Source: Amphiscolops sp. MND2022 (Eukaryota). From it: a stretch of DNA of 64,000 nt. Below are positions 1,194-61,100 of this stretch, in pieces. The translations under genes and the position numbers were made by a program. Each line of letters starts with the position of its first letter. Positions within the stretch are counted from its first letter, which is position 1. The stretch lies in assembly GCA_964187785.1 (NCBI GenBank), contig OZ076409.1:8682001-8746000 (forward strand), written 5' to 3'. The notes beneath the pieces were generated by a model. The model did no database searches and was not told where the DNA came from. It saw only the letters and a program-made list of their open reading frames with translations.

Positions 1194-4100
1194 GTAAAAG
1201 TTAATTTCTCCAATGCCGCGGGGTGCGCGTTGAATAAGCAGATCTGCTTTTCTAAGTCGGCGCCCTTTCGGATACTTTCTCCCCATGAGCAAGCTACGGT
1301 ACCATATTTGCAGCCAAGTGGTCAAGCAATGGTGGGCTTGAAGCTGTGGTTTCAACGTGACTTGCTCAAGGTCTCAAAGGTCTGACTGCTCACCGTTGCT
1401 CTTTTTATTTTGCATTTCTCCGGCCAATGCGGTATTTTTGTCATACCACCATAATGAAGGACTATAATGACCATACCACTAAGCTAGGGATGAAGGACTT
1501 GCTTAGGGTCCAACAATGATGAGCTGAGAGAGATTCGAACCTGATACAGCCCCAGTACAGTCCAAATGCTCTAACCACTACACCATGCTCCCCGTGTGAA
1601 AAAAGTTGGGAAATAATCCCATAGAAGATCTTTTGTTCGAATCAACTTACAGTGTGCCACTGGCACATTGAAGCAATTGAAAACTGATGACGAAAAAGTA
1701 ATTTAATGATTCAAGAGCGTTTCTCACAGTGCCGAAAAACCCCAGAGTTAGGTAGTTGCCTTGGTGTCGTACGAACTAACATGGTTTGAAATTTTTGCAT
1801 CCATTCCAAGCTGCGAATACAGGAGAATAACTACATGTAGCTGAGAATAGAAAGGGAATATAATTGATGACAAATAATTTATAAAAAATAATTTATAATA
1901 ATTTTATAATAAGCTAAAACTATAACTTTTGACAAAACAAACTATGATAAAAAAGCATTCCGAAACACAGTTTCAACCCTCCCGTGGTAAGGATTTATCA
2001 ATGCCGTACAGCACCAGCCATGTTGTCTATGTTCATTACACTTTTATCGTTAAGTTTGGAGAAGCATGCCCCCCTCAAGAAAAAATTCATCAAATAAAAG
2101 CCAAAACCATCGATTCTCGGGAAACCTTGGTTCGATGATGAATGCAAAAAAGCTTTGGAAAACCGTCAAACACAATTCAATCTCTTTCGAGCGAAGCCAT
2201 CCATTGATCGTTGGACCGCCTACAAAGAAGCGAAACATCGTCTCAGTAACTTGATCAATACTAAACAAGGAACTTTTTCGCAAGACCTCGCATCGAACTT
2301 AGTGACTTCTAAACAAAAATGGAACTTCATCAACCATATCAGGAGATCCAAGGCTACTTCAGTTGAAATATCATGCCTGAAAAACTCTTTCGGAGACCTG
2401 ATTGTAGATGACAATGCAATTGCAAATCACTTGAATTTAGTGTTTTCAAATTTGGGAGAATATTTTGGTGATAAAAATGTATGCCCCAAAATTAATCTGA
2501 AAGAAGGTAATGGTGATTTCAGTTTTCATCCGATTTCTGAGAAACAATGTTTTGATATCTTTCGTGAGATTGATCCTAAAAAACCCACGGGTCCTTGTGC
2601 ATTACCTCCTTGGGTCTTTATTGATACAAAAGACTTGATAGTCCCACATCTAACCTTCATTTTCAATGAATGTATTAAGCAATCCTGTTTTCCTACAGAA
2701 CTCAAACGAGCATTTGTCACCCCGATATATAAAAAAGGCGATGCGTTAGATCCAACCAATTACAGACCGATATCGATTACTAATACTCTTTCCAAAGTTT
2801 TCGAGAAAATTTTACATCAACAAATTACTAACTATTTGGACAACACACGGAAAATGAGTCAAAATCAGTTCGGGTTCAGGAAAAAATTTTCCACGCAAGA
2901 TGCCCTCTTATTCTTCACTGAAACAATGAGGAAAGAAATTGATAGTCACAATATTGTACATGCTGTCTTCCTTGACTTGTCTAAAGCTTTTGATTCCATA
3001 TCACATAAGTTGTTGATGAAAAAACTCAGTGCTTTGAATTTTTCTGAATCTGCTTTGAAACTGATGGGGGATTTTCTTAATCAGCGTACTCAAAAGGTAA
3101 AAGTTAATGGCAAACAGTCTGATTGGATTGAGCTGGCCAGAGGCGTCCTTCAAGGTACAGTTTTAGGACCTTTAATGTTTAATCTTTATGTAAATGATTT
3201 AAACGACTGTATTGACAGCAACTCCCGATTAGTTCAATATGCAGATGATTGTCTAATCTTTTCCACTGGCACTGAATCGTCTAAAACATTGGTTGATCTA
3301 CAAAAGAACATTGCAAATATCGAAAATTACTTTAGCACCCATCAGCTTAATTTAAATGTCAGCAAAACTGAATTCATCACTTTTTCGCGTAAAAATGATA
3401 AACGTTGCACTGAGTCGCAGACAGTCACCATTGGAAAAACCCACGTGAATAAAGTGAACGCCTGTAAATATTTAGGTGTAACTATTGATGAACATCTCTC
3501 TTTTGGCCCGCAAGTTAAAAAAGTATTGCATAAAATGGCAATGGTAATCAAAACAATTGATACTATTAAGAAGCAACTTCCAACAACAACACTAATCATG
3601 CTTCTCCAACATCTAGTTTTGAGTCACTTGAGCTATCCCGCACTTTTATTTCCTTCTGTGTCTACAGCTTCTTTTAATTCACTTGAAAGGCAGCTGAACT
3701 GGGCTTTGAAATGTGTTTTCTTTCGCAGTCAACAAACTTGCTCTGAGGATATTCGGAAGTCTAAATATGTGATCAGCATGAGGAAATTGATTGATTTGAG
3801 ATGCTTAACATACTTTTTCCAGCTTCTTAAGCTCGAAAGACCGGCTTACCAATATACTAGTTTACCAACATCCGAATTTCATTTAAACGGTAGAACGTCA
3901 AAAATAATTCATCATGGAAACAGTTCATCTGCCTACATCTCTAGCTCTTTTATCCGTAAAGTCTCTACCAAGTGCAATTCACTCCCAGTATTTCTCAGGA
4001 ATGTCCAAATTTCTTCACAACTTTTCAAATCAAGATTGAAGAAGTATTTGATTTCTGAATCTCGTAATGAACTTCCATATTACTCTGTGAACACGTGGCG

Positions 4101-31100: not shown

Positions 31101-34100
31101 ATTATGTCCAGCATTTTAGTTTTTATTTGTTTTTATTTCAAAATGGCTTACTTTAGTGTAATTCCAAAGGTGATAAGTTCTGTCGTTTTTAAAAATTGTT
31201 GAATATTTCCAGCATTTTAACTTTTCAATTGTCTTTAACTCTCAAAATGGCTTACTTTAGTGTACTTCCATAGGGGATAAGTTCTCTCGGTTTGAAAAAT
31301 TGTTGTTTATTTCCTGCATTTTAGCTTTTCAAATGTCTTTAACTCTCAAAATGGCTTACTCCAGTATACTTCCATAGGGGATAAGTTCTGTCGGTTTGAA
31401 AATTTGTTGATTATGTCCAGCACTTTGGTTTTTTATTTTTCTTTAACTCTCAAAATGACTCACTTTAGTGTACTTCCATAGGTGATAAGTTCTGTCGTTT
31501 CTAAAAATTGTTGAATATTTCCATCATTCTAACTTTTCAATTGTCTTTAACTCTTAAAATGGCTTACTTTAGTGTACTTCCATAGGGGATAAGTTCTGTC
31601 GGTTTGAAAAATTGGTGATTATGTCCAGCATTTTGGTTTTTTTATTTTTCTTTAACTCTCAGAATGACTCACTTTAGTGTAATTCCATAGATGATAAGTT
31701 CTGTCGTTTCTAAAAATTGTTGAATATTTCCAGCATTTTAACTTTTCAATTGTCTTTAACTCTCAAAATGGCTTACTTTAGCGTACTTCCATAGGGGATA
31801 AATTCTCTCGGTTTGAAAAATTGTTGATTATTTCTAGCATTTTAACTTTTCAAAAGTCTTTAACTCTCAAAATGACTCATTTTAGTGTACTTCCATAGGG
31901 GATGAGTTCTGTCGGTTTGAAAAATTGTTGATTATGTCCAGCAATTTAACTTTTCAAATGTCTTTTACTCTCAAAATGGTTCACTTCAGTATACTTCCAT
32001 AGGGGATGAGTCCTCTCGGTTTGAAAATTTGTTGAATCTTTCCAGCATTTTAACTTTTCAAATGTCTTTAACTCTCTAAATGGCCCTTTTTAGTGTACTT
32101 ACATAGGGGATAAGTTCTGTCGGTTTGAAAAAATGTTGATTAGGTCCAGCATTTTAGTTTTTTATTTGTCTTTAACTCAAAATGGCTTACTTTAGTGTAC
32201 TTCCATAGGGGATAAGTTCTGTCGGTTTCAAAAATAGTTGATTAGGTCCAGCATTTTAGTTTTTTGGTTTTAACTCTCAAAATGGCTTACTTTAGGGTAC
32301 TTCCATAGGGGATAAGTTCTCTCGGTTTGAAAAATTGATTATTTCCAGCATTTTAACTTTTCAAATGTCTTTAACTCTCAAAATCGCTTACTTTAGTGTA
32401 CTTCCAAAGGGGATAAGTTCTCTCGGTTTGAAAAATTGTTGATTATGTCAAGCATTTTAGCTTTTCAAATGTCTTCAACTCAGTATGGCTTACTTCAGTA
32501 TACTTCCATAGGGGATATGCTCTGTCGGTTTGAAAAATTGTTGATTATGTCCAGCATTTTTGTTTTTTGTCTTTAACTCTCAAAATGGCTTACTTTAGTG
32601 TACTTCCATAGGGGATAAGTTCTGTCGGTTTGAAAAATAATTGATTATGTCCAGCATTTTAGTTTTTATTTGTTTTTATTTCAAAATGGCTTACTTTAGT
32701 GTACTTCCAAAGGGGATAAGTTCTCTCGGTTTGAAAAATTGTTGATTATGTCAAGCATTTTAGCTTTTCAAATGTCTTCAACTCAGTATGGCTTACTTCA
32801 GTATACTTCCATAGGGGATATGCTCTGTCGGTTTGAAAAATTGTTGATTATGTCCAGCATTTTTGTTTTTTGTCTTTAATCCTCAAAATGGCTTACTTTA
32901 GTGTACTTCCAGAGGGGATAAGTTCTGTCGGTTTGAAAAATAATTGATTATGTCCAGCATTTTAGTTTTTATTTGTTTTTATTTCAAAATGGCTTACTTT
33001 AGTGTACTTCCAAAGGGGATAAGTTCTCTCGGTTTGAAAAATTGTTGATTATGTCAAGCATTTTAGCTTTTCAAATGTCTTCAACTCAGTATGGCTTACT
33101 TCAGTATACTTCCATAGGGGATATGCTCTGTCGGTTTGAAAAATTGTTGATTATGTCCAGCATTTTTGTTTTTTGTTTTTAACTCTCAAAATGACTCACT
33201 TTAGTGTACTTCCATAGGTGATAAGTTCTGTCGTTTCTAAAAATTGTTGATTTTTCCAGCATTTCAACTTTTCAATTGTCTTTAACTCTCAAAATGGCTT
33301 ACTTTAGTGTACTTCCATAGGGGATAAGTTCTGTCGGTTTGAAAAATAATTGATTATGTCCAGCATTTTAGTTTTTATTTGTTTTTATTTCAAAATGGCT
33401 TACTTTAGTGTACTTCCAAAGGGGATAAGTTCTCTCGGTTTGAAAAATTGTTGATTATGTCAAGCATTTTAGCTTTTCAAATGTCTTTAACTCAGTATGG
33501 CTTACTTCAGTATACTTCCATAGGGGATATGCTCTGTCGGTTTGAAAAATTGTTGATTATGTCCAGCATTTTTGTTTTTTGTTTTTAACTCTCAAAATGA
33601 CTCACTTTAGTGTAATTCCATAGATGATAAGTTCTGTCGTTTCTAAAAATTGTTGAATATTTCCAGCATTTTAACTTTTCAATTGTCTTTAACTCTCAAA
33701 ATGGCTTACTTTAGCGTACTTCCATAGGGGATAAATTCTCTCGGTTTGAAAAATTGTTGATTATTTCTAGCATTTTAACTTTTCAAAAGTCTTTAACTCT
33801 CAAAATGACTCATTTTAGTGTACTTCCATAGGGGATGAGTTCTGTCGGTTTGAAAAATTGTTGATTATGTCCAGCAATTTAACTTTTCAAATGTCTTTTA
33901 CTCTCAAAATGGTTCACTTCAGTATACTTCCATAGGGGATAAGTCCTCTCGGTTTGAAAATTTGTTGAATCTTTCCAGCATTTTAACTTTTCAAATGTCT
34001 TTAACTCTCAAAATGGCCCTTTTTAGTGTACTTACATAGGGGATAAGTTCTGTCGGTTTGAAAAATTGTTGATTAGGTCCAGCATTTTACTTTTTTATTT

Positions 34101-37100
34101 GTCTTTAACTCAAAATGGCTTACTTTAGTGTACTTCCATAGGGGATAAGTTCTGTCGGTTTCAAAAATAGTTGATTAGGTCCAGCATTTTAGTTTTTTGG
34201 TTTTAACTCTCAAAATGGCTTACTTTAGTGTACTTCCATAGGGGATAAGTTCTCTCGGTTTGAAAAATTGATTATTTCCAGCATTTTAACTTTTCAAATG
34301 TCTTTAACTCTCAAAATCGCTTACTTTAGTGTACTTCCAAAGGGGATAAGTTCTCTCGGTTTGAAAAATTGTTGATTATGTCCAGCATTTTTGTTTTTTG
34401 TTTTTAACTCAAAATGACTCACTTTAGTGTACTTCCATAGGTGATAAGTTCTGTCGTTTCTAAAAATTGTTGATTTTTTCCAGCATTTCAACTTTTCAAT
34501 TGTCTTTAACTCTCAAAATGGCTTACTTTAGTGTACTTCCATAGGGGATAAGTTCTCTCGGTTTGAAAAATTGATTATTTCCAGCATTTTAACTTTTCAA
34601 ATGTCTTTAACTCTCAAAATGGCTTACTTTAGCGTACTTCCATAGGGGATAAATTCTCTCGGTTTGAAAAATTGTTGATTATTTCTAGCATTTTAACTTT
34701 TCAAAAGTCTTTAACTCTCAAAATGACTCATTTTAGTGTACTTCCATAGGGGATGAGTTCTGTCGGTTTGAAAAATTGTTGATTATGTCCAGCAATTTAA
34801 CTTTTCAAATGTCTTTAACTCTCAAAATGGCCCTTTTTAGTGTACTTACATAGGGGATAAGTTCTGTCGGTTTGAAAAATTGTTGATTAGGTCCAGCATT
34901 TTACTTTTTTATTTGTCTTTAACTCAAAATGGCTTACTTTAGTGTACTTCCATAGGGGATAAGTTCTGTCGGTTTCAAAAATAGTTGATTAGGTCCAGCA
35001 TTTTAGTTTTTTGGTTTTAACTCTCAAAATGGCTTACTTTAGTGTACTTCCATAGGGGATAAGTTCTCTCGGTTTGAAAAATTGATTATTTCCAGCATTT
35101 TAACTTTTCAAATGTCTTTAACTCTCAAAATCGCTTACTTTAGTGTACTTCCAAAGGGGATAAGTTCTCTCGGTTTGAAAAATTGTTGATTATGTCCAGC
35201 ATTTTTGTTTTTTGTTTTTAACTCAAAATGACTCACTTTAGTGTACTTCCATAGGTGATAAGTTCTGTCGTTTCTAAAAATTGTTGATTTTTTCCAGCAT
35301 TTCAACTTTTCAATTGTCTTTAACTCTCAAAATGGCTTACTTTAGTGTACTTCCATAGGGGATAAGTTCTGTCGGTTTGAAAAATATGTGATTATGTCCA
35401 GCATTTTAGTTTTTATTTGTTTTTAACTCAAAATGGCTTACTTTAGTGTACTTCCATGGGGGATAAGTTCTGAAAAGTTGGTGATTATATCCAGCATTTT
35501 AGTTTTTTAAATGTCTAACTCTCCAAAGGTATTCGTTTCGAGTAATTTTTTAAGGTACCTGCTATGTTCGATTGAAAAAATATCGCTTTTATGCGGCATT
35601 TTGGTGAATAGTTTGTCTTTGTCTTATAAAATGGTTTTGTTCAGTATTTTTCAGTTTTTATTGATTATTCTTTCGGTTCCTTGTGCAAATTTTGTCTTCC
35701 TCTGATTTGCTATTTGGTAATTTCACTACTCCCATGATGTAGACACAATGTACTGGGTAAGACGGGCCTAACCCAGCCTGCACAGTACGAGTGTCTACTG
35801 GGTTCTTAGTATTGGTTGACCTCTCTTGAAGCAGGTAGACCGTTACAGCTCTACTCTTCAAGAATCGGGTTGAGGTTAACCCTAGACTCCAGTAGACACT
35901 CAAAATCTCTTGCACAAGTACTGATTCGATTCGATTCCAATCTTCACTTTTCTTCCCTTTTCGATTTAATTACCTCTACACTGACTATATCGCGGTATCA
36001 CATGTAAATTGTACAATTTCTCTACGTGGTATGGAATTACTGCAATATTGTTTTAATCAATTGTTCTTGAAATTAACTAGCTTGCTCCGTCATTATTTTT
36101 TACTTTTGCTGACTGCTCTTTTTTCGTGGAAATAGTTTTTCTGGCTATCGTTTTTTTGCTTCTGAAAGGGTATAAAAGCAGAAATAATCGTGTGCCCCGG
36201 AGGGGCCTATTTTTCTTATTTTCCAACAAACTGGAGTTTCAAAAAGCCCAAAAGGTCTAAGTTTTTCGGCACTATGAGACTGGTTCAAAATTCTCATTTT
36301 TCGTTTTTTTTTCAACAATTTTTCGAAAACTTCGAAAATTTTCTAATGTCTCCAAAATGTCCCCCTTCAGTTCTTCAAACATTGTGCAACAAACTGGATT
36401 TTCAAGAAGCCCAAATGGACCCCTTTTACAATTTTAAAAACTTCGCGCTTTTTGAGTCTTAGATATAGCGCCGACTTTGGCCGTTCCCGGCTTGTTACTA
36501 TTTCTACGATAGCAGGATCAAAATAGAAACTGAAAGGAGACGTTTTTTTTTCAGCCGAGTTTGTTAGTTAACAGAGTACCTACTGAAAAATTCAGATATT
36601 TTGTTCGGCAGTGAGTATAAGCCTGAGATTTAAATTTCTCAAGCTGCCGACGACAATTCAATTCTCGTGCGATGAAGCGAGGGAACGTGAATTATGCATT
36701 CGTACGCCGAATTCATTGAGATGAGAATTATTCGTTCGCCGAGAGGTTCGCCTGCTTTCAAATGTGAATGCGAAACTTCGTATACGCTTAGTAGTTATAT
36801 TCTTCTAGTCCGAGAAGAAATAAAGGTGGTGTAAATCGGTACATTGGTTAATTGTGCTCTATATAATGATTAAACTGTAGTGTATAGTTATTCCAGATAT
36901 GCTTCTATTATTGAGCATGAAAGCGTAAAGCATAAAATTATACTGTGCCCCGCAGCACAGGTCTATTTTGATAATCATCGTTTTTTTGAAAAAAAGTCAC
37001 CCCAGAATAATGAATCCCTCACAACTACTGATTGATCACCTGCAATCAATCAAGGCCCACTTTCCGATCGTTGATGGGCTAAGAAGGTTACATGATTGTC

Positions 37101-46100: not shown

Positions 46101-49100
46101 TAAACATTTGTATCGCATCACTGAGTGAAATTTTTTTCCTTCAATTTTTTTTCGGCACATACTCATCCAATGAAATATAGGCGTGTCACGTCAACTATTT
46201 TTGGACCTCATCAAGGTCTGGTCTGAACCTTTTTTCAAAATCTATAAAGCTCTACTTTACTTAAATTTCAAATATTTTTTTATCCCAAATCATCGCATAG
46301 TAAAGTGTCTGTATCATGTTTCTTATTCCCCCAGGTACACCTTGTTTCGAATTAACAGCAAAGGTATGATTATGTCGACATCAAATATTTTATTGGAGCA
46401 AAATCTCAACTCATACGATGTCGACATAATGGTATTTGAACATCTCTTCTTTTAAAACGTCGTGGTGTAAAAAGTGACTCATTTCACGTTAGTGAGTTCA
46501 TTTTTTATGGTACACGCAGGTGTTTCATGCATGGAAGATTCCACGACAACATTTTTTTTCTTCTATTCAAAAACGTGGAAAAATAATCTCACGTTTTTCA
46601 AGTTAAGAATTTTCAAAAACACATTGTTTCTGCATGAACAGGTGAAACGCTTTCTAGGATTACATCAATTTTACATTGTACAAAGTGCCACTTCCTTGTC
46701 AATCAATGACGAAAATCTGTCTTTTACCTGTGTGTAAGGCCAGCATAAAATCACGCGCCAACATGCCCAAAAATCACGCTACTTCACTAAATTCACGCTA
46801 CTTTGAATATCGAAAATCACGCGGACAAATAATCGGAGCAATGACTGAATTCAATTCAATTTTTCGGAGTTTCAGTACAAAAACAACCGTTATTTGATAA
46901 TTTCTGGGCCCAACCTTTTGCAGTCCGAAGTGGCAATATTCCAAATCTAGAATAGTCACTTCAAAACAACCATATTCCGCCAATTTCTAGTTCCTTTTCA
47001 TTGTTCTATGTTGTTCGATTTTCTGGAATATTCTAGAATAGTTACTTCAAAACCATCATATCCGCCAACTGCTAGTTCCGCCGTAAAATCACGCCATGTC
47101 ACGGAGCATTCTAATTGGCTAGAAAATCACGCTAATTCACGCTCGTGATTTTATGCTGGCCTTGCCTGTGTGTAATGTCTACTATACCTATGGTTTTATT
47201 GTGTCAAAGGAACGAAGGCTCTTACGAGACGATCCCAGACGTGTCAAAAGACCCCCCTGCTATCCCCAAAAGAGTCGCTCTGGATGTGCAAGGGCGCCCA
47301 GAGGAGGACGACCAGCTGAGACCCAAACCAAAACCCCTTCCTCGAGTATCATCTCTGCAGGTCAGTTATCTCCGCAATGTTTCTAAAACGCTTGTCCCCA
47401 ACTAAAAACATCAAAAAACCAAACCCAATCTTCTGAGAATTGTTTCTTTAATGTCACTGTGCCGAAAAACCCAAAAGAATGGGAACCTTCAGGCTCAGAA
47501 AAAACTTTCTAGGTCTCACCATTGGTAAAGTGGTTAGCGTTACTGGGTTTGAACCTAGAGGGTGCTGGTTTTAAACCAAATGATGAAAAAAATTCGATAT
47601 TTTTCAGCCTATCAATTTCAAAAACCGTGATCGTGGCTGAAATACTTAGTCGGCGCCTTTTCCTTTAAGGAAAAAACCTGACTATTACAATGGGTAGTTT
47701 TTTTCAGTTCACTCCGAATGGCTCTCTTTTTTGTTGATTTGTTCAACTCTTTAGCCGAGAGGTCAACCCGGATTTTAGTTCGGATGTAATGTTTTCGAAG
47801 TTCGGATATAACGTTTTCAAAGTTCGTATGTAACGTTTTCATTTCCCGTATAACATTATCGATGTTTTCCCAAAAAATTCACCTAATTTGTTGAGCCTTA
47901 GATATGGCGCCGACTTGGGCCGTTCCCGGCTTGTATGTTACTAATTCCAAAACAGTCACTGACACACCAACAAAAAAGCAAACAAGCCGGGACCGGCCCA
48001 AGTCGGCGCCATATCTAAGGCTCAAAAATAGCAAAAGGACTTCAAAATGTCAAACTATTGGTTAATTGGGTACCCTTTTATGAAAAAAAATTGAAAAAAG
48101 TCTCACAATGCCGAAAAAACTTCCCGGCTTGTCTTTGATTGATCACCTTTTGCAGGGTGCGAAGGGGGGAGAGGTACCACCGAGTGTGGCGAGGATGAGA
48201 CAGAAGCATGGCGGCAAGTGGAGGGCAAGTGGCGGCGACGAGAACCGCAGACAGACTGTCACTGTGGAGTACAACCCCCACGCAGGTACTACAGACACAC
48301 TTTTTAATCCGATAAAAAATAATAATCACCCAGTTGATCATCAGATCTTTGATGTTACGCCTCTACGATGCATTCCCAAATAACATTGAAACTAAAACTA
48401 AATTAGTTTCAAATGACATAAAAATGAAATGAGTTTCACTAGACATAAAAATAAAATTGTTTACCAGAAAGTTTCAGTGGTCGAAAGCATTTACAATTCA
48501 AAAGAGTCACTGAAAAAAGTATTAAAATCATTTTAATTTTAAACATTTTTCTGTAATGATTACAGATAAAATTTCACGAGTTCGATTGTTTAACCGGGGT
48601 TTTCGGTTTTATTTTTATGTTATGTGAAACTAATTTCATTTTTTTGTTGAATGGAACTATTTTCATTTTTATGTTGAATGGGACTAATTTGATTTTTATG
48701 TTATTTGCTATTATGTTATTTGAGACGTGATCCGCCTCTACCACCGAAGCTTTAGCAAATTTATAAAGAGTTTCCTTGCAAAAATCTACAAAATTCGAGA
48801 ACCGTTTCTCAATTTTAGAAGTTTCTTCGGAAACTTTGTTTGTCATATGATGAAAACTTTGTTTGTCATAGATCAGATGTTTGTCTACATAAAAATGTAG
48901 AAGGAGGGACCCTTTGGGATTTATTAACATACATTCAGTTGCAAAATATGACAACACTCGAAGGGGGGACCCTTTTGAGACATTAAAAATTTTTTCGAAA
49001 AAAAGTCGCACAGTGCCAAAAAAAATCCAAAGGGGGGACCATTTAGGCACGTCCGGTTTTGTAGGTTTCCTTGAAAAGGTGAAAAAATGAAAGGGGGGCT

Positions 49101-52100
49101 CCTTTGCACTAAGTTTGCCTTGGCCCCTTTGCCGGACTGGGCGCCTTAGGTGATTTCAGGATTGTTTCTAAAAAGTGGACCGTTCAGTGTGAGGATTGTA
49201 GTCTGAAGAAAAACAAGACGGGAACGTCTAAAGTCGGCGCTATATCTAAGGCTCAAGAGGCGCAAAGTTTTCTAAATATGCTCAGGACGTATTCATGAAA
49301 AGCTTTGAAAACACTTTCGAAACACCCAAAGTGTGCCTCTCATGCTCGATATGACTGGAAAATCACTGTTTCCCGACTGGGAACAAAATTTGAAAACTTT
49401 TTGAAAAATTTTTTTTGAAAAAAAAACTTCGAAAATGTCGCATAGTGCCGAAAAATGAAAAGGGGGGACCCTTTGGGATTCATTGACAGACATTCTGTTG
49501 CAAAATATTAAAAAACTCGAAGGGGGGACTCTTTTGAGACCTTAAAAAATTTTCGAAAAAAATTCGCACAGTGCCGGAAAAAAAATTAAAGGGGGGACCC
49601 TTTGGTCTCTTTCGGTTTTGTAGGTTACGTAAAAAAGGTAAAAAATAAAAGGGGGGACCCTTTGCACTAAGTTTCCATTGGCCTGACTTGGCCTGAGTAG
49701 TCTTATCAGTTTCTGTAAAAAGTGGTACATACGCGATGAGCTCTGTGGTCTGACGAAAAAAAAAGAAAAAAAACTAGCCACTGTAATAGTCGGGCTTTTT
49801 TCCTTAAAGGAAAAGGCGCCGACTAAAAACAGTCACTGCTATAGTCGGGCATTTTTCCCTTAATGGAAAAGCGCCGACTAAAAACACTTTCACAAGATAT
49901 GCGAAGGTCATTTTCTGGCTACTATCAGAATTTAGTCTAATCGAAAGCATAGTTTTGACAAATCTAATTAGCGACTTAGCGACAGCTCAGGAATTTTTCT
50001 GCGATTTCATTAGCGATTCATATCAGCTGTAACTGGTGGAATGTCCCAATTCAAAATTTCTTTTGAGTATACTCGGATATTCAAGATGAATTTCGAAAAC
50101 TCCAATTCTTATCCCCGTAAAATTCGCACAGTATACAAAAATTCCAGGTTGTTTTTCCTGCAAAACCAAATTAGGTTATCATTCAGTTTTGAAAAATGCT
50201 TCATCATCAATAACTTAGATGTGTTTCCCAGGTATTCGTTTAGTTGAACAAAGTGAACAAAATTTCGTCGCATTCGAGACTGTCTTAAATGAAACAGATT
50301 AAAAAACGAGTGACCTGTAATAGTCGGGCTCTTTTATTCTAAAAGCTCAGACTAAAAAACGACCTTAGAAAACGTCAAATGATTTGTTAAAAAAGTGACC
50401 AATCTTTGGAAAACAACCAGTGTGTCAAGGAGACTAAATCTGTATAAGTAACCATATATCTGTGTGGTTAAGGAGTCGGAAACGGAAAAATATTGAAAAA
50501 CAATTCAATTACTTTGTTACTAAGAGGGACCTAAGTTTTGTTTTAAAGGAAAATGCGCCGACTAAAAAGACGAATTGTTTCATTTCAGGAAGTGTGGATG
50601 GTCTGGAACGAATAACGAGTTGTGTCTCGGACGAAGCCCTGGCGTCCCTGGAACTGCCTCCCCCGCCCCCGCCCGAGGACGCGATGGAGGACTCGGAGCC
50701 CCTGAAGTTCATCACCCGGCTGGGCGGCCACCAGCCGAGACCCCTGTCCACCTGCGAGTCTCTGTGCTCCTGCTCGTCCACATACGGGTATGTCTCAAAT
50801 GTCGACACCATCGACGACATGTGTCGAGACTGTTGTTCGTGTCGCAGCTCCACTGTCACACTCCTCCCTGAGAACGAAGATGGTGAGTCGTAGTCATTCG
50901 ACAATGTGGAACAAGACACCCGCTATTTACCGGGAGGATATTTTCCGCCTTGTTCTTATATTTCTGTTTTTCTCCGCCAATTGCATTGTTTTCTCCATTT
51001 GCATTGTTTTTTTCCATTTGCATTGTTTTCTCCAATTGCATTTTCCTCATGAAATATCTCATGATCTCCATGCCGATCTCAATCCACTACTTCATCCATC
51101 CTTTTCATCTATGAAACCAGAATATTCAAATAACTAAAATAGTCAAGTATTGAGGGAGGTCGATGTAGAAACTGGGAGGAATAATAAAAATCGTATGGAC
51201 AGATTTTGAGAAATTTGAAATTTTCATTGAAAGGTCGGAAATTTTTTTCGATTTCTAAAAAGAGTCATCAGTTGAATGAGTCCATACCCAGTGTTCGAAG
51301 CCATGGTACCCTTGCCAAGATCCATGGCAAGTTCCTTGCTAGCCTTACCAAGATCTTGCCATTATCTTGGCAAGGATACCATGGCCATGCAAGATCGTGC
51401 AAAGGCTAACCATGATTAACCATGATCTTGTAACAATGCCGTGCTCTCAACTAACAAAACTCGGTCAATAGGTGTAGCAAATTATTGAGCAAGTTTTGGA
51501 TAATTTTCAATTAAAAAACTATTTTCGATCAATAAATTTTATGTCTGAAGTAATTACAATGGCTAATTCAGAAATTGCAGACAAGGAATTTTCGCAAAAA
51601 TAAATTATGCACAATTAATACCAGCTTACATGTCTTACCATGGTTATCTTGGCAAGATCTTGCCATGATCTTGACAAGCGTTCCATGTATGATGATTTGC
51701 CATGATCTTGACAAGGGTACCATGGTTAACCATGATTTAGCAAGATTTACCATGATCATGGCAAGCGTTCCATGGCTTCGAACACTGGGTAGAATCTAAC
51801 AGTAGGTCTAACCTTTGTGTTGTTTTCCAGTTGTGATCGGATCGGTTTCATGTGTAGATCTTGCATATTCTATGCCATCGAAGAATTGCTGCAAAAGCAA
51901 ACATTGCTAAGTTGGTTTTTTGGCACATTTAGTATGTCCTGAAGTGTTTCGATGTGGATGTCAGAAAAATTATAGTTCAAAGATCATTACCGGATAAAGC
52001 CAAAGGACTCCTTTCGGAACCATATCAAAAAACCTTAAAACGGGATTATACTAATGGTATAAAAAAGTCCCGTCTTCCCGATTGCACTCCATAGGGTTGT

Positions 52101-55100
52101 TGGAACAGTTACGGCACGTCGCTTTGGGCCTGAATTTAAGGAGTCGGAAGTATGGGATCGTGGTTTGACACAATTGAATTTGTCAGCGACGCTTTTGGAT
52201 ACAAATAGAACGTTTGCGTCTGTACGTTTTTTACTTCCAACATGAGAATAAAGCATTTCTCATTTTCTTAGGGCTTGAACTGGGTGATTCCAGCAGGCAT
52301 AAAAAGATCTCCTTGGGCCTTTCAAGGCTCTCGTAAATCGGGCAATGCGCCTTTGAAAGTCGTTCCTGGTACAGTGTGATGCCTATTGTTGCTTAACCTA
52401 GTGGTTCTTTCAGTAAATACCAGATGAAATAAATTATTATATTATTATTTCTGCGATAGCAGGAATATTATTCAAGTCTCAAGATTTCAACTTTTTTCAG
52501 TAAAATATTTGTCGTGATACTGAAAAATTCTGATTTTGTTCGGCAGTGAGTATAAGCGGGAGATTTAAATTTTTCAAGCTGTCGACAACAATTCGTTTCT
52601 AGAGCGAGTGTGAATTATGCATTCGTACACCGAGTCATTGAGATGAAGCGAATAGTGTTAGTTATTCGTTCGCCGAGAGCTTCGCATGCATTCAAATGCG
52701 ACACTTCGTCTACGCTCAGTAGTTATATTTTTTTAGTCTGAGAAGAATTAAAGGCGGTGTAAACTGGTACAGTGATTAATTGTGCGCTATAGAAATGATT
52801 AAGATATACTTCTAATATTGAAGATGAAAGTCTAAAAGCAGAAAGAATACTGTGCCCCACAGGGGCTTTTTGAAGATGAAAGCCTAAAAGCAGAAATAAT
52901 ACTGTGCAGGGGCCTATTTTCGTATATTATTTCTCGTGCTAGCATAGCTTTTTAACAACAAAATACAATGAAATGTTTCTGGAAAGACGCAAAAATGCAC
53001 ACTTCATCGATTTTGATTGTTTCGTGTTTTTTTTCAGTTGAGGGATCTGAAACGGACAACATCAGCTTGAGATCGGAAACGAGCTTCGCGGTGGAAATGG
53101 ACAACTTGGTCAGCATGGCAGAACTGGCGCTGAGTGAGAACAGTCTGGAACTGGCCCTGAAGAGGAACGCCGCCTACCTTGACCCGGTCGGTGACCTGCT
53201 GATGACCTCCTCGTCTGCCAAGAACCGACCTCTCAGCTCCGCCTCTCTCGGGGACGAGTCAACTGGTGGTCTTCTCACTCCCAAAGCTGCTTCTCCGCGC
53301 TACCTGGTTAGTACCAGTTATTATTATTTTCCACCCACTCATAATGGGGGAGGAAAATCATTATGTTGCGTTTTTTCCAAATTCTGCCAAAACTCCGTTT
53401 TATTACTCCATTTAGTAAATTCTAGTCACCATAGCGCAGTTGGTACTGCGTCTGCCTGGCAGACACGAGGTCGCGGGTTCGAACCCGGGCCGATGCGTTA
53501 CATTTTTAGCGGAAAATATCCCGGTGCTTAACGGGCGTCTTGTTATTGTATTGGATAGGAAATACTCAGGTTTTAGGAGTCGGAAAATGACAAAATCGAC
53601 GAGGATTCCTCGGAAAGTATGTGTTACATCTCGTTTTTTTTCCTAATAAAATGGGAAAAAATCTTGGAAGATCTCCAATATTTTTATGTTAATGATTGAT
53701 ATATGACAAAATTTTTCAATCTTTTTGCCCGAAAAAGGTTTTGTGATTTTTTTCAAGTTTTCAGGAGTCGGGAAAATTTTAGACTCTTTATGCAATCGTA
53801 CTTTTTTCTCGCCCGATCTTTCAATGAAAATTTCAAATTTCTCAAAAACTATTCATACTATTTTTAAAATTTAGTACAGTCATTCGACACCCAAAGGTGC
53901 TCCGGTGTGCGCCATGACATCAAAATAATATGACTGGGAAGCAGCCAAAATTAGCTATGGCAAAAAAAACAGCCAGATTAAGATTTGTTGTACAAAAGTT
54001 GTAGATATGAATGTACGTTCTTGGATATTATTGAGTATTACAAAAACTTTTTGAGCTAAAAATTTCAAACACTTTTTGAGCTACAAAGGGTCTTGAAAAT
54101 TAGCGAGCTCTCAACCCCTGGTTCATGTATCCATTATTAGTCGTTACTATTCATGATATTCTTCTGTTCAGAGCTGTACAGACATTCCCGATGTCAGTTC
54201 CAGGCCAGATGACCTAAACATCAAAGAAGCGGATGCTGAAACTCTGAAAGTTTTGTTCAAGTCTCTTTTGAACCAACTTGATCAAGTTAAACATCAGCTG
54301 CTTGTTTTGGGCGAAGGTCAGTGGCTTTGCTCTCAAAGTACCTCACAGGAAACCCAAACAGACTCCGAGAATTCAACTCTTTCAAATCATCTGACGACGG
54401 CTGATGAAAAAGTCAGAATATCCTCGGCTGGCGCAACTTATAAAACTAGCACAGATAATGGGAGGAAGGAAACCTCGTATGCTGCCAAGGAAGGCGTTTT
54501 TACCCGCAAACCCAAAGACACCAAACAGTCTCCTCATTCGATCAGAAGATACCGAAGATCACGAGATTTCAGCAATGTCAGTCAGACCTCTAATGAAGCG
54601 AATTCTGCTGCTTCAAAACACGTGCCTCATGATTCGATACGTGAAAGAAACAATTTCGAGATCAATGATTTTCATCGAGCTGCGTATTTGAACCACGTTG
54701 ATAACCACCCGACTAGCAAAACCCAGTTGCAAAACGAACATGACGAGTTCCATGATTCGTATGAAGCTTTTAATAACAGAAACTCAAGTGACAGTAGTAA
54801 CTTCGATGCCGAGGAATGCGACAAGGAAGAAGACGAAGACGAAGACGAGGAAGAAGAAGCGGAGAATTATACTTTGAATGGAAATCTGTCGCTTTATGTG
54901 CCTGAGCCCAGTGATCACACGTGTTACATATCATTCGGAGACAACTCCCCTTCTTGTTCCCCTAGAACCACGACCATCGGTACTGTTCAGTCCCCGGGAT
55001 CGTCGGAGGTCGTGACGTCATTGGGAAAACCATTGGTCTCTAAATTGAAAAGTTCCCTCAGCAGCAGTACTGATTGCATCGTGAACGGATCTTACAAACA

Positions 55101-58100
55101 GGAATGGAATAAAATCCGATTTCAAAAAAAAATCAATCAAATCCGATTTTTTTAACTTTATGGTTGATTTTTTTTATTTTAATGATTTTTTTTATTTCTT
55201 TCTGGGAAAACAATATTGTTTAAAAAGATGAATTAAATTCGTTTCAAAGCTCTTCAAGCTTTGATTTACTCAAAACTTTGAAGCAGAATAAAAATTTGGC
55301 AGCTTTTTCGGTTCTTCGATCTTTCAAATTTCTCCCAAACATCGGGAGATTTTTGACTGGGAGTCATGCCTACCTGAAAAATATCAAAAAATCGATTTTC
55401 GGATTTTAATTTTTTAAAATCATCATTTCAATCAATGATATAAATCAACTATATAAATAAACCATTCCTGCTTACAAACAGTCTTCCAAAAAATCATCGG
55501 CACCCGGACCCCCATCTAACAACATGAAGAAGAGAAGTGTCTCTACCGCTGCTATCCCCAAACCTCAATCAGAGAAAGAGTCTCGAAACAGGACATCAAG
55601 TTTTGGTTCCGATGCGAGTGTGACTCCTACAAATCAGGAATCCCAGAGTGCCTCAAAAGGAAGTATTCCAACTACCCCAGAAGGCTTCGTTCCTGGAGCA
55701 GTGAAGGCTAGAAGAGCCATGTTCGAGACTCGTTCTAAACAGGAAAACAGTTTTGATGCTTTCAAACTCCGCAAAACTGCAAGTGGATCCAAAGAAGGCG
55801 TCTCTGGTGGAGGAATCTTTTGGGGCAAGAGCAAAATTGCCAAATCAGCATCTACCAGCGACCTTGTTATAATTGCTGATCAAGATGATGACGTTACTGT
55901 CAATCAATGTGAGTTTCCTAATACTTAATGGCCAAACTATAACTTTGCTTTTGACAACACATAAGTCGTTAAATATTTTAACCCTAAATGGACGACGGTA
56001 CGATTTCGTACCAGTTACTTTCTGCAATATTCTGAAGCCACCAGTTGACCGTATGGTAAGGAAAACTCTTGAATAGTATTTTCAGCCAATTTTACATAGC
56101 ATTACTCGCCTTTTCATCTAATATTGACTAAATGTCTCCAAAAATTAGGAAAACGGGACCAAAAAATCAAAAAAATAGAGCACAGATTTTCTGTTTTTCA
56201 AGTTTTCGTTTGTGAACATTTCGTTTTTCTGGTATCAAGATTGGGTCAAAGTTGCCCAACATGATTTAAAACATGCTGAAGTGCAGTCAAAGACACAAGG
56301 CGTGCAAAGTTTTGGCGCAAAGTCCGGAGCCAGTGCGGCGAATCCGCACGCCGGCGGAGGATTTCGCGCAAAAAAACTTTGCGCGCAAGGGGCCCGCGCT
56401 AGCGGTCCTCCAGCCCAGCAGTTCAAAAATCGATTTGAACGCCCTGATTGACTTCTTTCGAAGGCGTTGTAAATCGCTAGTCGGACTTGATTAGTTCAGG
56501 AGATATTGCGGTTTAAAGTTGAAGCACTGGATTTTTGGATGGATACGGAAATTTCTTTGTCCATTTAGGGTTAAGCATATTCGTTTTTTTACGATCAAGG
56601 GAATTTTCATTCCAAAGTAGTATTCGATATAGTAAAATTCTTTATCAATTTCAGGCAGCGCATTACGAAATAAACCAGGAACGGCCCAAGTTGGCACTCT
56701 CGATGTTCAAAAAGAGCAAAGTGTTACGAGTATGTGAAGCGACAATTAATGTCAAAATTTTATCAATATTACAGTTGCCAAAAATAGTCGAAGTGGTAGT
56801 CTTGAGACTCGAAAACCGCTTTTGTAATAGGAACCTAAATTTTTGAATGATTTCTAATTGAATTGCTATTTTTATTCACTTAATGCTGCTACACAACTTT
56901 TCATTGAAGCTTTGATGGTTTCAGTAACGAAGATCAATAGACTTTTTAGTCGGTGCATTTTATAAGCAAATGGGCCCGACTATTACATTTACTAGTTTCT
57001 TTTCGTAAGACCACATAAATCTATGTGAATAGTCCACTTTTCAACAAAGTTGGTTCACGCCGCAAGTAGTTAGGATGTTAGGATGAGAGCGTCCCAAGGA
57101 GACGGCCGTCGGTTCGATGCCTGCCGAGAATTAAATATCTTTGTTTGCATACCTTGAAGCGTCAAAAGGTTTTTAGGAACTGTGTCATTTTCAAAAGTTT
57201 CAAATTGACGTTTTTCAAGTCGAAAGGGTCCCATCTTTGCGCTTTCCGGCACTGTGTGACTTTTTTCGAAAAGTCTCCGTGTTAAAAGTTTTTCGAAAAC
57301 TTTATTTCTCAAACTTCATGAAAACAGAATTTTAACATATTTGAAAGACTGTGCGTTTTGAGCTTTAGGCGGGGCGGCGACTTTAGACGATCCCGTTTTG
57401 TTTATTGATGAAACAGTCCATCTGTGATAACTTAGAAAATCTCATTGTTTAGAAATTATATTAAAAGCAAACAAACCGGGAACGGTCCAAGTCGCTTACG
57501 CTTAAGAAAACGAAGTTTTCAAAATATGCAAAGGGACACTATTGTGAAACGTTTATCAAATTTACAGTGCCGAAAAATACCTGATAGGATACGCGTAAGA
57601 CTCGAAAATTGCTTTTCCCCAATTTGAAACGTCAAAAAACTTTTTCTATTTAAAAAAATTGAACTTTCCAAAAAAGTTTTTTCAGGCAAAAGTTTCATAG
57701 TGCTGAACAAGGTGCTTTAATCTCGCTAAACGTTTTTTTTCAGGCCAGAAACATTAAAGTAAAGTGATACCCTTTGATCAAATAAAAATTGTATCGAAAA
57801 AGGCAGTGTCGGAAAAACCGTAGGTCTTTCCATATCAGTTCTACAGGATCAAAAAAATTGCCAGGACTAAAAAAGTCTCACCAAGCCGAAAAAAACGGCA
57901 AAACCTTCTGAATTGTCTAGTAACGACAAATACTTTACCAACTATGGAAACCAAAGGTGGTACCCGTTGGAAGAACCAGAGATTGCTTGCTAGTAAAGTA
58001 GGAAGGCCCAGAGAAATTCTGTGAAAAGTGGACCTTTCAGTTTGAGTGCTAACGTCTGGAGAAACAAGACGGGAACGTCTAAAGTCGGCGCTATATCTAA

Positions 58101-61100
58101 GGCTCAAAAAGCTCAAACGACTTTCAGAAAATGTCGCATAGTGCCGAAAAAAATTCGAAAGGGGGACCCTTTAGTCTTGTCCGGTTTTGTAGGTTACGTT
58201 AAAAAAAGTAAACAATGAAAGGGGGACCCTTTTGCACTAATTTCCACTGACCGGACTTGGCCTTATGGTAGTTTTAATAGTTTTGATTGTAAGAAAAGTG
58301 GACCAATCAGAGTGAGATTGTAGTCTGATTAAAAAAAAGAAAAAAAACTAGCCACTGTAATAGTCGGGCTCTTTTCTCTAGAAAAGTGCCGACTTAAAAG
58401 AGCCACCGTAAGAGTCCAGCATTTTTTGTTTTTTGGTCTTACAAAACCCACCGACTAAAAACCATATAGACCTTTAGTAGTCTATAGAAAGCAATGTTTT
58501 ATAAAATACTATAGGTAGTTTACTTAAAAATCATTATTTCCATATTACGAAGTGAACAAGCCGAGAACGGCCAAAGTCGGCGCTATATCTAAGGCTCGAA
58601 ATTGTAAAAGGGGGGACTCTTTGGGTTTTGTGAAACTCCAGCTGGTGGCAAAATATGAAAAAAAATGAATTGAACAGTGTCACAGTGTCGAAAAATGTAA
58701 AAGGGGGGACCCTTTGGACTTTGTGAAACTCCAACTGGTTGCAAAATATGAAAAAAAATTGAAGGGGGGACCCTTTAAGGACTTAAAAATACTGCCCAAA
58801 AAAAATTTAAAATGTGATTTTTGAACAGTGTCACAGTGCCGAAAAATGTAAAAGGGGGACCCTTTGGAATTTTCTGACATCCATTGTGTTTTGAAATATC
58901 GAAACAAATAAAGGGGGGACCCTTTGGTGCAATCCAAAAAGTTTCAAAAAAGTCGCATAGTGCCGAAAAAAAGTGAGGGGGGGGAGGCTTAGGGGAGATC
59001 CTTAGTGTGTTGTCGAGGTTCTGTTTGTTTTGTTTTCTTTTTCGTTTTGGACGCGCTTCTTGGGTTCGCCAAGTTGTTGAAGAAATGAACTGAACAAAAA
59101 GAAAAGAAACAGCAGAAAGAAAAGTGGAACTTTCGTGTCTAAAAAAACTACCCACTGTAAGAGTCGGGCACATTTTCTACTAAAATGCGCCGACTAAAAA
59201 CGACAAAATTTAAAACAAATACAATCAATGCTAAAATACAGGTTACTATCTAAAGCGGCATTCACCTTCAACATGTTTTAATAGCATTGAGGTCTGTTAT
59301 AATCAGAAATTGATTCTTCAATTAAATGTTTTTAATTTAAATCTAACAATCATACTTTCCCTCAGCATTTATTTCTTGTGGTAAAGAATTCCACGTAGGT
59401 ACTATTCTTTTCTAAAAGCAATTTCGTATGAAACTTGTGTTAGCATTACTGTTGTACACTAGCTTTTTTGTTCTCTGTTGGCATTTAATGTTGGAAAGAA
59501 TTGACGATGTTTCATTGAAAATTGACAGCATGCCTGTTTTCTTTTTAGTCGGCGCTTCATGAAGTGAAACGCGACTATTATAGTGGCTTTTCTTTTTTTT
59601 TTCAATCCACACGAACTGACCAAAGTAGTTCTTAAAAGTTCTACAAAATATTATTGCACCAAATTGCACTATTTGGTCTAGCAAACTGAACCAAAAAAGT
59701 TTTTCCTGTTTTCCCGTATAACATACCATACCCGGCGAGACCAACGGGTCCCCCTTCCAATTTTTTTTCGGCACTGCGAGACTTTTTTTCCTCAAAGGGT
59801 TCCTCCTTCAACTGCGACAAAAATGTTGACAATTTCGGAAGTGTCCCCCTTTTAGCACTCCTTTTTTTCTAAAAGAGAATACTTGACACTTGGAAGTCTT
59901 TTTGCTATTTTTGAGCCTTGGATATGGCGCCGACTTGGGCCGGTCCCGGCTTGTTTAATAGTATAATTCGAGGGAAAAATGGAAAACCTTCTTTTTGTGC
60001 CAACAAATGACAATTAATTCCTTCATTTGTGAATTGTCACGAAAACAAATTACCTGTTCTGTGCAAAACATTTTCCCTTTAGTTTGGAAAGTAGGGTTCT
60101 TACATTTAATGGTGCTGCAGATGTTCATCGATTCGGCTGTTGGGCTTTGGGCGAGCGATTCAGTTTTATGTGGTTCTACAAATTTCTACCTTCAAAAGTT
60201 ATGGAACCTATATAGGATTTCTAAAACCTTAGCAGAACTTTCAAACTTTGAAAACCATTTTTGTTAAATACCGCAGTTTTTAAAAGGTTTTGTAATGTTT
60301 TAGCGAAAGGTGGTACGGGCAACACTTACACTCGTCCTTTGAAAGGCAAAGAGGGCTCCAGTTCGCAATCAAATGTACCGAAGAAGCCCGAGAGACTGTC
60401 GTTGCTTAAAGGGTCCAACATTAATTTGCGGCAGACAGAAAACAGTTGTTCCAATTCGGAGTCAGAGCTCGCACACTCGCGTGATCAACTCCTCGTTTCC
60501 AAAATGCGAACAGTGAGTTCTGTTCTCTTTTCTCATCAACAGATTCAAACGGCTATCCTGTTTGCTTGAAACCAAGGTTCGTTTTTCAGGCTATTTAGCC
60601 TAGCCACTCAAAAGTATTGTGCTTAAACTGTGTTGAACTCATTTCAATTCCAAAAAAATTACAAACTCATTTCACTGACACGCCCTCCTTGTAATAAGGG
60701 AACAAAATTTTCTCTCTCTACACCAAATCGCGGTTTCGGTATGCGCGGTCCTGTTTTTGAAATCAAGAACAAATATAAAAAGAGAAAAATGAAGATTTAA
60801 AAAAATCAAAATCAAAAAGTCCCGGGAAGTTATGAGAATTTAGTGGAAAAATTAACGGAAGCTACAGTCGTTGGGCTGAATAGTTGTCCGTTTCGAAAAA
60901 AAATCAGATAGCTTCTAGTGGATTTGTTCACTCTTTTCACTGATTTTCGGCGGAAGTCGTGAAAGAAAATTGACCAAATTTGAAATATCTCTTCATGGTG
61001 TGAAAACCATTTATTTCTTTTTCATCTTGTCCACTTTCCAACAGAAACTCATTTCGGAAAAAAATTGGGTTGAAGTCATTGCAAAGAATGTTTGTGTCAA

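Follow-up and report, generated by a model that had tools for sequence, protein, structure and literature searches.

A hAT-like MITE inside a coding exon of an Amphiscolops gene and its possible removal from the RNA

Can a gene survive a DNA transposon that has landed in the middle of one of its coding exons, and if so, by what route does the insert leave the message? The question is raised by the window analysed here, a stretch of 64,000 nucleotides from Amphiscolops sp. MND2022 (contig OZ076409.1), in which sequence reading and a repeat search identify a non-autonomous hAT-like MITE within a host coding exon (Table 1). A sequence-only reading of this DNA had proposed a recently gained, introner-like intron that is spliced out exactly between GA and AG. 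We find that removal of the MITE from the RNA, by whatever route, is probable on balance, and that its age and its way of removal are likely to differ from that proposal.

Table 1. Features of the host exon and its insert (window positions; a slash marks a splice border)
Feature	Position	Strand	Basis or remark
Upstream part of host exon	54172..55098	+	Open frame 54157..55155; tblastn; native acceptor
Nearest in-frame cryptic GT donor (ATC/GTGAAC), candidate	55081..55086	+	With AG at 55481 would give a 401-nt intron, VNGSYKQ lost
Left target-site duplication CTTACAAA	55091..55098	+	Codes for part of ...SYKQ
MITE, non-autonomous hAT-like, 372 bp	55099..55470	.	Family, ends, 8-bp duplications, G+C
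Left terminal inverted repeat CAGGAATGG	55099..55107	+	Proposed GA donor at 55102-55103, context CAG/GAATGG
First in-frame stop (TAA) if MITE retained in mRNA	55153..55155	+	Native donor 753 nt further on
Right terminal inverted repeat CCATTCCTG	55462..55470	+	Paired with left repeat in predicted RNA fold
Right target-site duplication	55471..55478	+	
Host CAG beyond the duplication	55479..55481	+	AG 55480-81 a candidate 3' splice site (ccattcctgcttacaaacag/TC)
Downstream part of host exon, up to native donor	55482..55908	+	Open frame; tblastn; native donor

The element is of the hAT type by its 8-bp duplication, its short ends, its small size, its non-coding sequence and its many copies. Both its 9-bp inverted ends and its target-site duplication (8/8) are perfect, the direct repeat CTTACAAACAG stands at both borders (55091-55101 and 55471-55481), no long open frame was found inside the element, and its G+C content is 26.6% versus 45% in the host exon. 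Terminal inverted repeats of hAT elements are short and start with CAG or TAG, and their preferred target is nTnnnnAn; across the family, T stands at position 2 and A at position 7 of the duplication in 8/13 copies each. At least 139 candidate copies occur in the same genome, and the 40 that were scored are 75-90% identical to the window copy. The CAGGAATGG and CCATTCCTG ends recur, with 8-bp flanking repeats, in each of the 13 other full-length copies that were read; six of these flanking repeats are perfect and seven have 1-2 differences. Because the element belongs to a real repeat family, the insertion is far beyond chance. What the sequence-only reading had said of the element, namely its 372 bp, its terminal repeats, its 8-bp duplication and the 11-nt direct repeat around it, thus stands in full.

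The host exon is internal and coding (54172-55908; 1357 nt without the insert) and has canonical splice sites at both borders, an acceptor ttctgttcag/ at 54162-54171 and a donor AAT/GTGAGT with its GT at 55909-10. The upstream frame reads ...NGSYKQEWNK... before it runs into the stop inside the MITE, as had been noted for an unspliced message, and the downstream frame (55461..55928) reads ...YKQSSKKSSAP.... In tblastn searches, residues 16-343 of a related species' protein (P0002) match 54166-55101 at 53% identity and residues 342-486 match 55476-55916 at 67%, the downstream half being the better conserved. The open frame of that relative (P0002/P0003) passes through the insertion site with a single KQ; therefore the empty exon is the older state and the insertion is derived. 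Ends, duplications, family and the relative's open frame thus bear out a hAT-type MITE in a once-continuous exon, and the empty site that the sequence-only reading had suggested seeking in relatives does exist. The host gene is single-copy, and its bearer is an animal, with Wnt-family genes at about four loci. A second assembly of the same species, possibly from the same individual, also has the insert, as seen from P0001, the only database protein from this species.

The claim of a recent gain fares less well. The window copy diverges from the majority consensus by 5.8% (21/362), with 4 indel events, and divergence from the consensus ranges from 3.1 to 9.6% in 26 copies. The family tree is star-like, with a median internal branch of 0.004 and a terminal branch of 0.072 leading to the window copy. 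Only two close pairs were seen (99.4% and 96.5%), and since both share their flanks they are duplications rather than fresh jumps; no independent young copies were found among the 26 compared. Judged from the element's own sequence, the insertion has probably resided for a long time in a host gene that is otherwise undecayed. In keeping with age, 6/13 of the other full-length copies have perfect duplications, where by arithmetic a share of about 0.38 would be expected had the copies aged in place. The sequence age is, however, that of the element, and a cut-and-paste element may bring old mutations along; a jump of recent date would explain the perfect 8/8 duplication no less well.

Beyond the insertion, the 426 coding nucleotides contain neither a stop nor a frameshift, in agreement with the earlier statement that the downstream frame is open, and they keep a conserved block, PTTPEG..VPGAVKARRAMFET...GGGIFWGKSKIAKSASTSDLVII. 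Stop-creating changes make up 51 of the 1278 single changes in this stretch, and the probability of no stop is 0.37-0.59 at 5.8-3.1% divergence. With frameshifts added at 0.08-0.12 indels per substitution, the probability of an intact frame under neutral decay falls to about 0.02-0.25 if the MITE aged in place, a figure that covers 426 nt and takes its indel rate from an A+T-rich repeat. The intact frame and the kept block favour removal of the MITE from the RNA and suggest continued selection on the downstream part.

Which route of removal would this genome offer? Our sample comprises 14 introns or borders, 12 introns from two CCT housekeeping genes plus the two native borders of the host exon. 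Of 256 dinucleotide pairs, GT-AG fits best, falling in exact register in 11 of the 12 CCT introns. These 12 suggest weak donor positions past GT and pyrimidine-rich acceptors with CAG; they are 292-2396 nt long, so an intron of 401 nt would fit. At the insertion itself, a deletion of 380 nt gives an identical product in all 12 registers, none of which is GT-AG, GC-AG or AT-AC, and no GT or GC occurs within 55099-55155. The sequence-only reading had seen this absence of donors between the terminal repeat and the stop. It had also pointed to the in-phase cryptic donor at 55081, which with AG at 55481 would indeed drop seven residues. Further in-frame GT donors for the same AG lie at 55036, 55012, 55009 (GAG/GTCGTG) and 54985, the residue loss across all five donors ranging from 7 to 39. 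All of them are weak, and that at 55081 has no G at -1 and none at +5. The VNGSYKQ region diverges from the relative, which has NAQTQKQ there.

The route we tentatively prefer, as a possibility somewhat short of probable, is removal by the ordinary spliceosome through an upstream cryptic GT and AG 55480-81, which would not be scar-free. With its high A+T content (27% G+C, as against 45% in the exon), the insert would be handled as an intron. Its 3' border would be AG 55480-81, which the host CAG just past the right-hand duplication supplies and ahead of which lies the MITE's pyrimidine-rich right end. Its 5' border would be a cryptic GT just upstream in the exon, most likely at 55081, with 55009 or 55012 as alternatives (31 or 30 residues lost). 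That the MITE is spliced from the pre-mRNA at all is our reading of the DNA.

The foremost alternative, which we hold to be only a little less likely, is a null or truncating allele, in which the MITE stays in the mRNA and translation ends at its stop; this far ahead of the native donor, the stop would expose the message to nonsense-mediated decay. The same estimate covers its two forms, a recent or polymorphic insertion made by an old copy that moved again, and a C-terminal part that is dispensable and still undecayed. The perfect duplication and inverted ends are in keeping with it, as are the weak donors nearby, the four AATAAA/ATTAAA hexamers that the MITE holds on the coding strand, and the single haplotype seen in this assembly. 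The same-species protein P0001 ends at 55153-55155, inside the MITE, although it is a mechanical open-frame call from the other assembly and not a transcript. Apparently intact hAT transposase frames, the longest of 697 aa and several with identical scores, are also present in the genome. The genome is rich in the hAT dimerisation domain, with 2215 candidates, 150 of which were scored and all lay above the cut-off, but in a look for an autonomous partner with the same ends CAGGAATGG occurred in 0/30 domain loci read with about 1.5 kb per side. Against retention stand the low odds of an intact downstream frame without selection, if the copy aged in place, and its divergence, which equals that of the rest of its family; a harmful allele would not last so long. 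Were the MITE not removed, the locus would represent an ordinary disrupting insertion.

Improbable, in our view, is excision by SOS splicing, in which paired inverted ends trigger spliceosome-independent excision near the ends and RTCB ligates the flanks. This process is described for Tc1, Tc3 and Tc4 in C. elegans mRNAs and for Tc1 and hsMar2 reporters in human cells (Zhao et al. 2025, PMC12779559). According to that account, every exonic DNA transposon tested was lost from 90-100% of its host mRNAs, non-autonomous elements are among the targets, end pairing is necessary and sufficient irrespective of end sequence, and excision sites are seldom GU-AG. In the window, a DNA transposon flanked by its inverted ends lies within an exon, and the minimum-energy and centroid folds both predict pairing of these ends (-90.4 kcal/mol, z -2.66, 0/100 shuffles as good). 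An RtcB gene is present in the genome, with six exon matches on one contig (C12). However, the predicted pairing is short, a 9-bp stem and a 10-bp stem past a 53-nt bulge as compared with the 54-nt repeats of Tc1, and the same paper gives the repeat features required as unknown (PMC12779559). The CAAP1 domain, which spans 63 positions and may be split by introns, was found in 0/30 scored candidates at a cut-off of E 0.01. SOS excision is also imprecise, so that only part of the products would be in frame, and its authors themselves regard long-term protection as doubtful on this ground (PMC12779559).

Scar-free loss of the MITE and one duplication from the message, by GA-AG splicing or by end-guided excision in a genome of otherwise ordinary introns, is very unlikely. 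If true, it would mean a new intron whose transposon hallmarks are still perfect, kept over evolutionary time. Its spliceosomal form, in which 55102-55481 would be cut out exactly between GA and AG, is highly improbable and is the least likely route of all; AG 55480-81 with a cryptic GT, or SOS splicing, would be likelier. As sequence, the earlier claim is accurate: removing this segment restores the ancestral protein, and it is the sole register among the 12 that ends in AG, its start being GA. Its donor context, CAG/GAATGG, would presumably keep 6/9 pairs with U1. That context also matches the AG/GAA reported for GA-AG introns (PMC7072748). The habits of this genome speak against it, since both native borders of the host exon are canonical and GA-AG fits 3/12 of the same CCT introns, near a background mean of 2.2. 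Among 12 U1 genes read, eight have the standard ATACTTACCTG and none has a compensating change opposite +2 that would pair with +2A. Thus, the 12 CCT introns, the exon's two borders and the 12 U1 genes give no sign of GA donor use in this animal, although a GA-AG share of about 10% may be compatible with the 14-intron sample. GA-AG introns are described as common in two animal groups, tunicates and arthropods (PMC7072748). A genome search gave no match to cellulose synthase, a tunicate marker, or to arthropod cuticle proteins; the host is therefore probably outside both of these GA-rich groups.

If the MITE is indeed removed from the RNA, as we think probable, this locus would show, in nature and apparently over a long time, how an animal gene can tolerate a DNA transposon within one of its coding exons. 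It would then bear on a question put in the 2025 paper on SOS splicing, whether RNA-level excision protects genes over evolutionary time (PMC12779559), and on an intron-gain literature that has few animal examples. The locus is favourable for testing, with a single-copy exon, a known empty ancestral state and three distinguishable types of predicted junction.

Among known systems, insertions of the maize hAT elements Ds1/Ds reportedly act as introns, and the ends of Ds1 are said to provide splice sites themselves. They resemble the window element in being non-autonomous hAT insertions of about 400 bp in exon sequence with an 8-bp duplication, and their removal from the message by splicing is usually inexact, as would be the case on the route preferred here. 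They differ in belonging to a plant and in splicing that is shown by cDNA; moreover, the first 57 nt of our MITE hold no GT or GC, so that, unlike in Ds1, the exon would have to supply the donor. We know of no euglenid-type splicing machinery in animals. Register 55096-55475 places CAG and CTG exactly where euglenid non-conventional introns have them (CAG at +4 to +6, CTG at -8 to -6; review PMC11282704), but we reject such an intron: the host is an animal, and we take the agreement to be a side effect of hAT geometry, since it arises whenever a CAG...CTG element makes an 8-bp duplication.

Introners, MITE-like transposons whose insertion creates introns (Gozashti et al. 2022 preprint; review PMC11282704) and that the preprint reports from just two animal groups, share with our locus the inverted ends and target duplication bordering a coding insert, and one splice site, here a candidate, at the duplication. 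They are described, however, as intron families with many members whose GY-AG sites are brought along or co-opted, and the label introner-like is not supported here: the element brings no GT, neither it nor its duplication yields a GY..AG (0/12 registers), and the AG is host sequence past the duplication. The proposed search for further copies in exons found none in a sample of 13, as in-silico removal of the element and one duplication left a convincing coding frame around 0/13 other full-length copies, the longest being 87+56 and 68+45 aa with a low-complexity look, compared with 314+149 aa in the window. In Oikopleura dioica and Eurytemora affinis, GA-AG introns share the donor context AG/GAA but occur in genomes with percent-level GA-AG use (Frey and Pucker 2020, PMC7072748), of which our 14-intron sample gives no sign. 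Finally, Tc1, Tc3 and Tc4 under SOS splicing are likewise DNA transposons with inverted ends in animal coding exons, where the gene may stay usable through removal at the RNA level. Tc1 has 54-nt ends as opposed to the 9-bp hAT ends here, and excision from our locus is a mere possibility; unlike those laboratory alleles, the insertion in the window seems to be evolutionarily old.

The element interrupts an internal coding exon whose two borders are canonical and which measures 1357 nt once the insert is subtracted. From upstream, the frame (...DCIVNGSYKQ) runs on into the element and ends at a stop within it; beyond the insert the protein resumes as ...YKQSSKKSSAP... Since the insert and one duplication together make 380 nt, the reading frame is shifted. 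A 380-nt deletion gives the same product from any of 12 registers. None of these is GT-AG, GC-AG or AT-AC, so exact excision of a U12-type (AT-AC) or GC-AG intron is ruled out, and the sole register ending in AG, 55102-55481, starts with GA. No GT or GC occurs from the element's left end to the stop. The sequence-only reading had described the repeat, the stop, the downstream frame, the GA..AG register and the lack of GT or GC in the same way, and each of these was confirmed.

Positions of the insertion, its host exon and other features of the window
Feature	Position	Remarks
Host exon start	54172	after ttctgttcag; canonical acceptor
Host exon end	before GTGAGT at 55909	canonical donor
Direct repeat, 11 nt, CTTACAAACAG	55091-55101 and 55471-55481	repeat search
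Inter-repeat insert, 372 bases	55099-55470	starts CAGGAATGG, ends CCATTCCTG
Upstream frame	54157-55155	stop at 55153-55155
Downstream frame	55461-55928	
LINE-like retrotransposon	2098-4116 (+)	
LINE-like retrotransposon	19794-23424 (-)	
Putative tRNA-derived SINE	53412-53646 and 19228-19483	
Satellite	26146-35472	
Interspersed repeat, both strands	501-890, 48574-49155, 58775-59176, elsewhere in the window	

Both flanks of the insert are single-copy in the assembly. When a second haplotype was sought there, the 399-nt upstream flank returned its own locus and three low-complexity matches of 40-49 nt only, and the 458-nt downstream flank returned only itself. When the upstream part of the exon was compared exhaustively by phmmer with 1.84 billion representative proteins, just two came up, P0001 and P0002, and no same-species protein with an empty or spliced site was among them; word searches for longer proteins gave nothing, or P0002 only. 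P0001, which lies on a 217-kb contig in another assembly of the same species, is 100% identical, runs into the element and ends at the same TAA. Its first residue is M although the window encodes L there, and we therefore regard it as a mechanical open-frame call; because it reads into the element, the insert must be present there too. A second haplotype was not found in the window's own assembly. P0002, a 500-aa frame from a related species (near-twin P0003), is uninterrupted; it aligns to 54166-55101 (53% identity) and 55476-55916 (67%), and both duplication copies align to the same two residues, KQ. The site is therefore empty in the relative, which makes the insertion a derived state of the window's lineage and bears out the earlier view of a transposon in a once-continuous exon. 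The alignment suggests that the relative's frame also retains the acceptor (VQ/S) and the donor (GTGAGTTT-type codons ...EF). Pfam recognized no family in 14 window frames, the host frame included, or in P0002; 'CRBG1 fragment' was rejected as the gene's identity, its best Atlas match (0.86) lying under the tool's own trust level.

Searching the assembly (1.07 Gb, 1929 contigs) with the element gave 139 first-look candidates, the best 40 of which scored 75-90% identity to the window copy. All 13 other full-length copies read, among which L024 and L030 are one duplicated locus, share these ends and are flanked by 8-bp repeats, of which six are perfect and seven show one or two differences; T occupies position 2 of the duplication in 8/13, as does A position 7. 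The hAT superfamily is known for characteristic ends, starting CAG, and for such a target preference; by its 8-bp duplication, its ends and its targets, the MITE carries the marks of that superfamily. At one copy (L005, C13:46549014-46549384 of the same genome), the duplication reads CTTACAAC / TTTACAAC and follows 'at'. In otherwise unrelated flanks this is nearly the window's own target, atCTTACAAA, which may reflect target preference or chance. Remains of hAT transposase are abundant: 2215 candidates, the best 150 of which were scored and all exceeded the Pfam cut-off, with frames of up to 697 aa. The MITE's ends, and hence an autonomous partner, were found at none of 30 hAT loci read. Transposase matches at C1:77183102, C1:82932543 and C2:22745381, and likewise at C3:11861948, C4:62392027 and C13:19965496, form groups that score identically and have 610-650 aa open; they may represent another hAT family whose autonomous elements were active until recently. 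Restoration of the gene by somatic excision from DNA was discounted, since a footprint normally remains where a hAT element has left.

The insertion had been called a recent, introner-like intron gain. Neither adjective is supported, as none of the 13 other copies lies in a convincing frame and the insertion, by the look of its sequence, is not young. Relative to a majority consensus of 26 copies, which themselves diverge by 3.1-9.6%, the window copy has differences at 21 of 362 sites (5.8%) and four indel events; the set was picked by likeness to the window copy, so that this distance is, if anything, understated. The tree is star-like, with a median internal branch of 0.004 and terminal branches of 0.004-0.14 (window copy, 0.072). 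Only two pairs are close (99.4% and 96.5%), L021/L025 and L006/L007, on different chromosomes or at distant sites. Their 600-nt flanks are shared at 90-98% identity, which marks them as duplications of a larger repeat containing the MITE, copied later, rather than fresh jumps. By our own arithmetic, a fraction of 0.38 perfect duplications is expected after about 6% decay in place, and 6/13 are perfect. From the divergence, the tree, the lack of fresh jumps and the decay of the duplications, the family looks long silent. Nevertheless, old mutations travel with a cut-and-paste element to each new site, and a late move would also be compatible with the perfect duplication of the window copy.

Other repeats populate the window. 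In one of the two LINE-like elements RVT_1 lies in a 673-aa frame; the second is nearly complete, with PHD-finger, endonuclease (Exo_endo_phos_2) and RVT_1 frames. The satellite (9.3 kb) comprises 91 copies of a 104-bp unit, alternatively read as a 303-bp period, with 83% matches and a strong T-over-A skew, and lies within an apparently large intron. Two segments whose translations have a common tRNA-like motif (...AQLV.R.PG...GSNPG...) suggest a tRNA-derived SINE; ARAGORN detected no tRNA gene in the window. The many-copy, unclassified interspersed repeat has frames reading ...PKGSPL..FFGTVRLF... and ...SALCDFF...

Does the gene still function? The 426 coding bases after the insert contain no stop and no frameshift. 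Among their 1278 possible single changes 51 create a stop, and the probability of acquiring none falls from 0.59 at 3.1% divergence to 0.37 at 5.8%. Summed over the MITE family there are 134 indel events to 559 substitutions; with a more conservative rate of 0.08-0.12 indels per substitution assumed for coding sequence, we calculate that neutral decay would leave the frame intact with a probability of roughly 0.02-0.25. The downstream half is also better conserved against the relative than the upstream half, and a 69-residue block within it has six differences from P0003. Such evidence is moderate and falls short of proving that translation of the C-terminal part continued after the insertion; if it did, the element must leave the RNA.

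We tentatively put first a spliceosomal route, in which a cryptic exonic GT would be paired with the AG at 55480-81 to remove the element. Paired with that AG, the GT donors at 55081, 55036, 55012, 55009 and 54985 keep the frame; all five are weak against the textbook consensus. For comparison we surveyed 12 introns of two CCT genes, whose donors are loose after the GT, with AG before it in most (they were chosen for their register, possibly wrongly in a few cases). The acceptor ccattcctgcttacaaacag is similar to those of the CCT genes. The insert has 26.6% G+C and the exon 45%, and CCT introns span 292-2396 nt; low G+C and these sizes make recognition of the insert as an intron plausible. Use of 55081 would cost the protein VNGSYKQ, a stretch not conserved in the relative. 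Elsewhere in the genome, some CCT (Cpn60_TCP1) genes are nearly intronless, the whole 490-position profile matching in one or two pieces (C1:33715344-33716813, C3:14611213-14612598, C3:83596308-83597582), whereas other CCT genes have 6-8 exons; they may be retrogenes or reflect uneven intron loss.

If the element instead stays in the RNA, the allele is null, which we consider somewhat unlikely given the intact downstream frame. Its stop lies 753 nt ahead of the next exon junction, where the usual rule predicts nonsense-mediated decay, and the element contains four poly(A)-like hexamers. Excision from RNA of the SOS type is a fainter prospect: the predicted fold brings the two ends together (z -2.66), but their pairing amounts to just one 9-bp and one 10-bp stem. 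RtcB is present in the genome; a search for the CAAP1 domain, whose 63 positions may be split by introns, gave no match at E 0.01 or better among the 30 candidates scored. The remaining probability goes to other arrangements, such as separate transcripts for the two halves.

Exact GA-AG splicing of 55102-55481 is very improbable: nothing further favours it, and GT-AG was the top pair overall, fitting 11/12 CCT introns (GA-AG fits 3; mean of all pairs, 2.2). The U1 search gave 23 matches; among the 12 genes read, eight have a standard 5' end and none has a change opposite intron position +2. The survey used an exact-register test with 256 dinucleotide pairs as control because loose tolerances give chance GT-AG solutions (145-269 candidates per intron); the 14 canonical borders are a small sample, compatible with a GA share of some percent. 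U1 occurs in two sequence types, ATACTTACCTGACATCGAGA... and ATACTTACCTGGCGCCGGCA..., the former with many copies clustered on C12 (e.g. L072-L075, L079), as opposed to loci on C8, C13 and C7 (L070, L071, L076, L078); at the 5' end a few copies are altered (ATACTTACTTG, ATTCTTACCTG, ATACTTACCTTG). A euglenid-type intron is ruled out since the host, with Wnt genes at about four loci, is an animal; six-frame genome searches for cellulose synthase and for the arthropod cuticle-protein family gave no match, each weak as an absence.

In conclusion, the locus offers a good, cheap experimental test case for the fate of an exonic transposon. SOS splicing is the known system of PMC12779559 (2025), which shows that C. 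elegans and human cells remove DNA transposons lying in exons from their mRNAs independently of the spliceosome. There, pairing of the inverted ends is the trigger, RTCB acts with AKAP17A and CAAP1 in sealing, and excision is efficient yet imprecise (PMC12779559).
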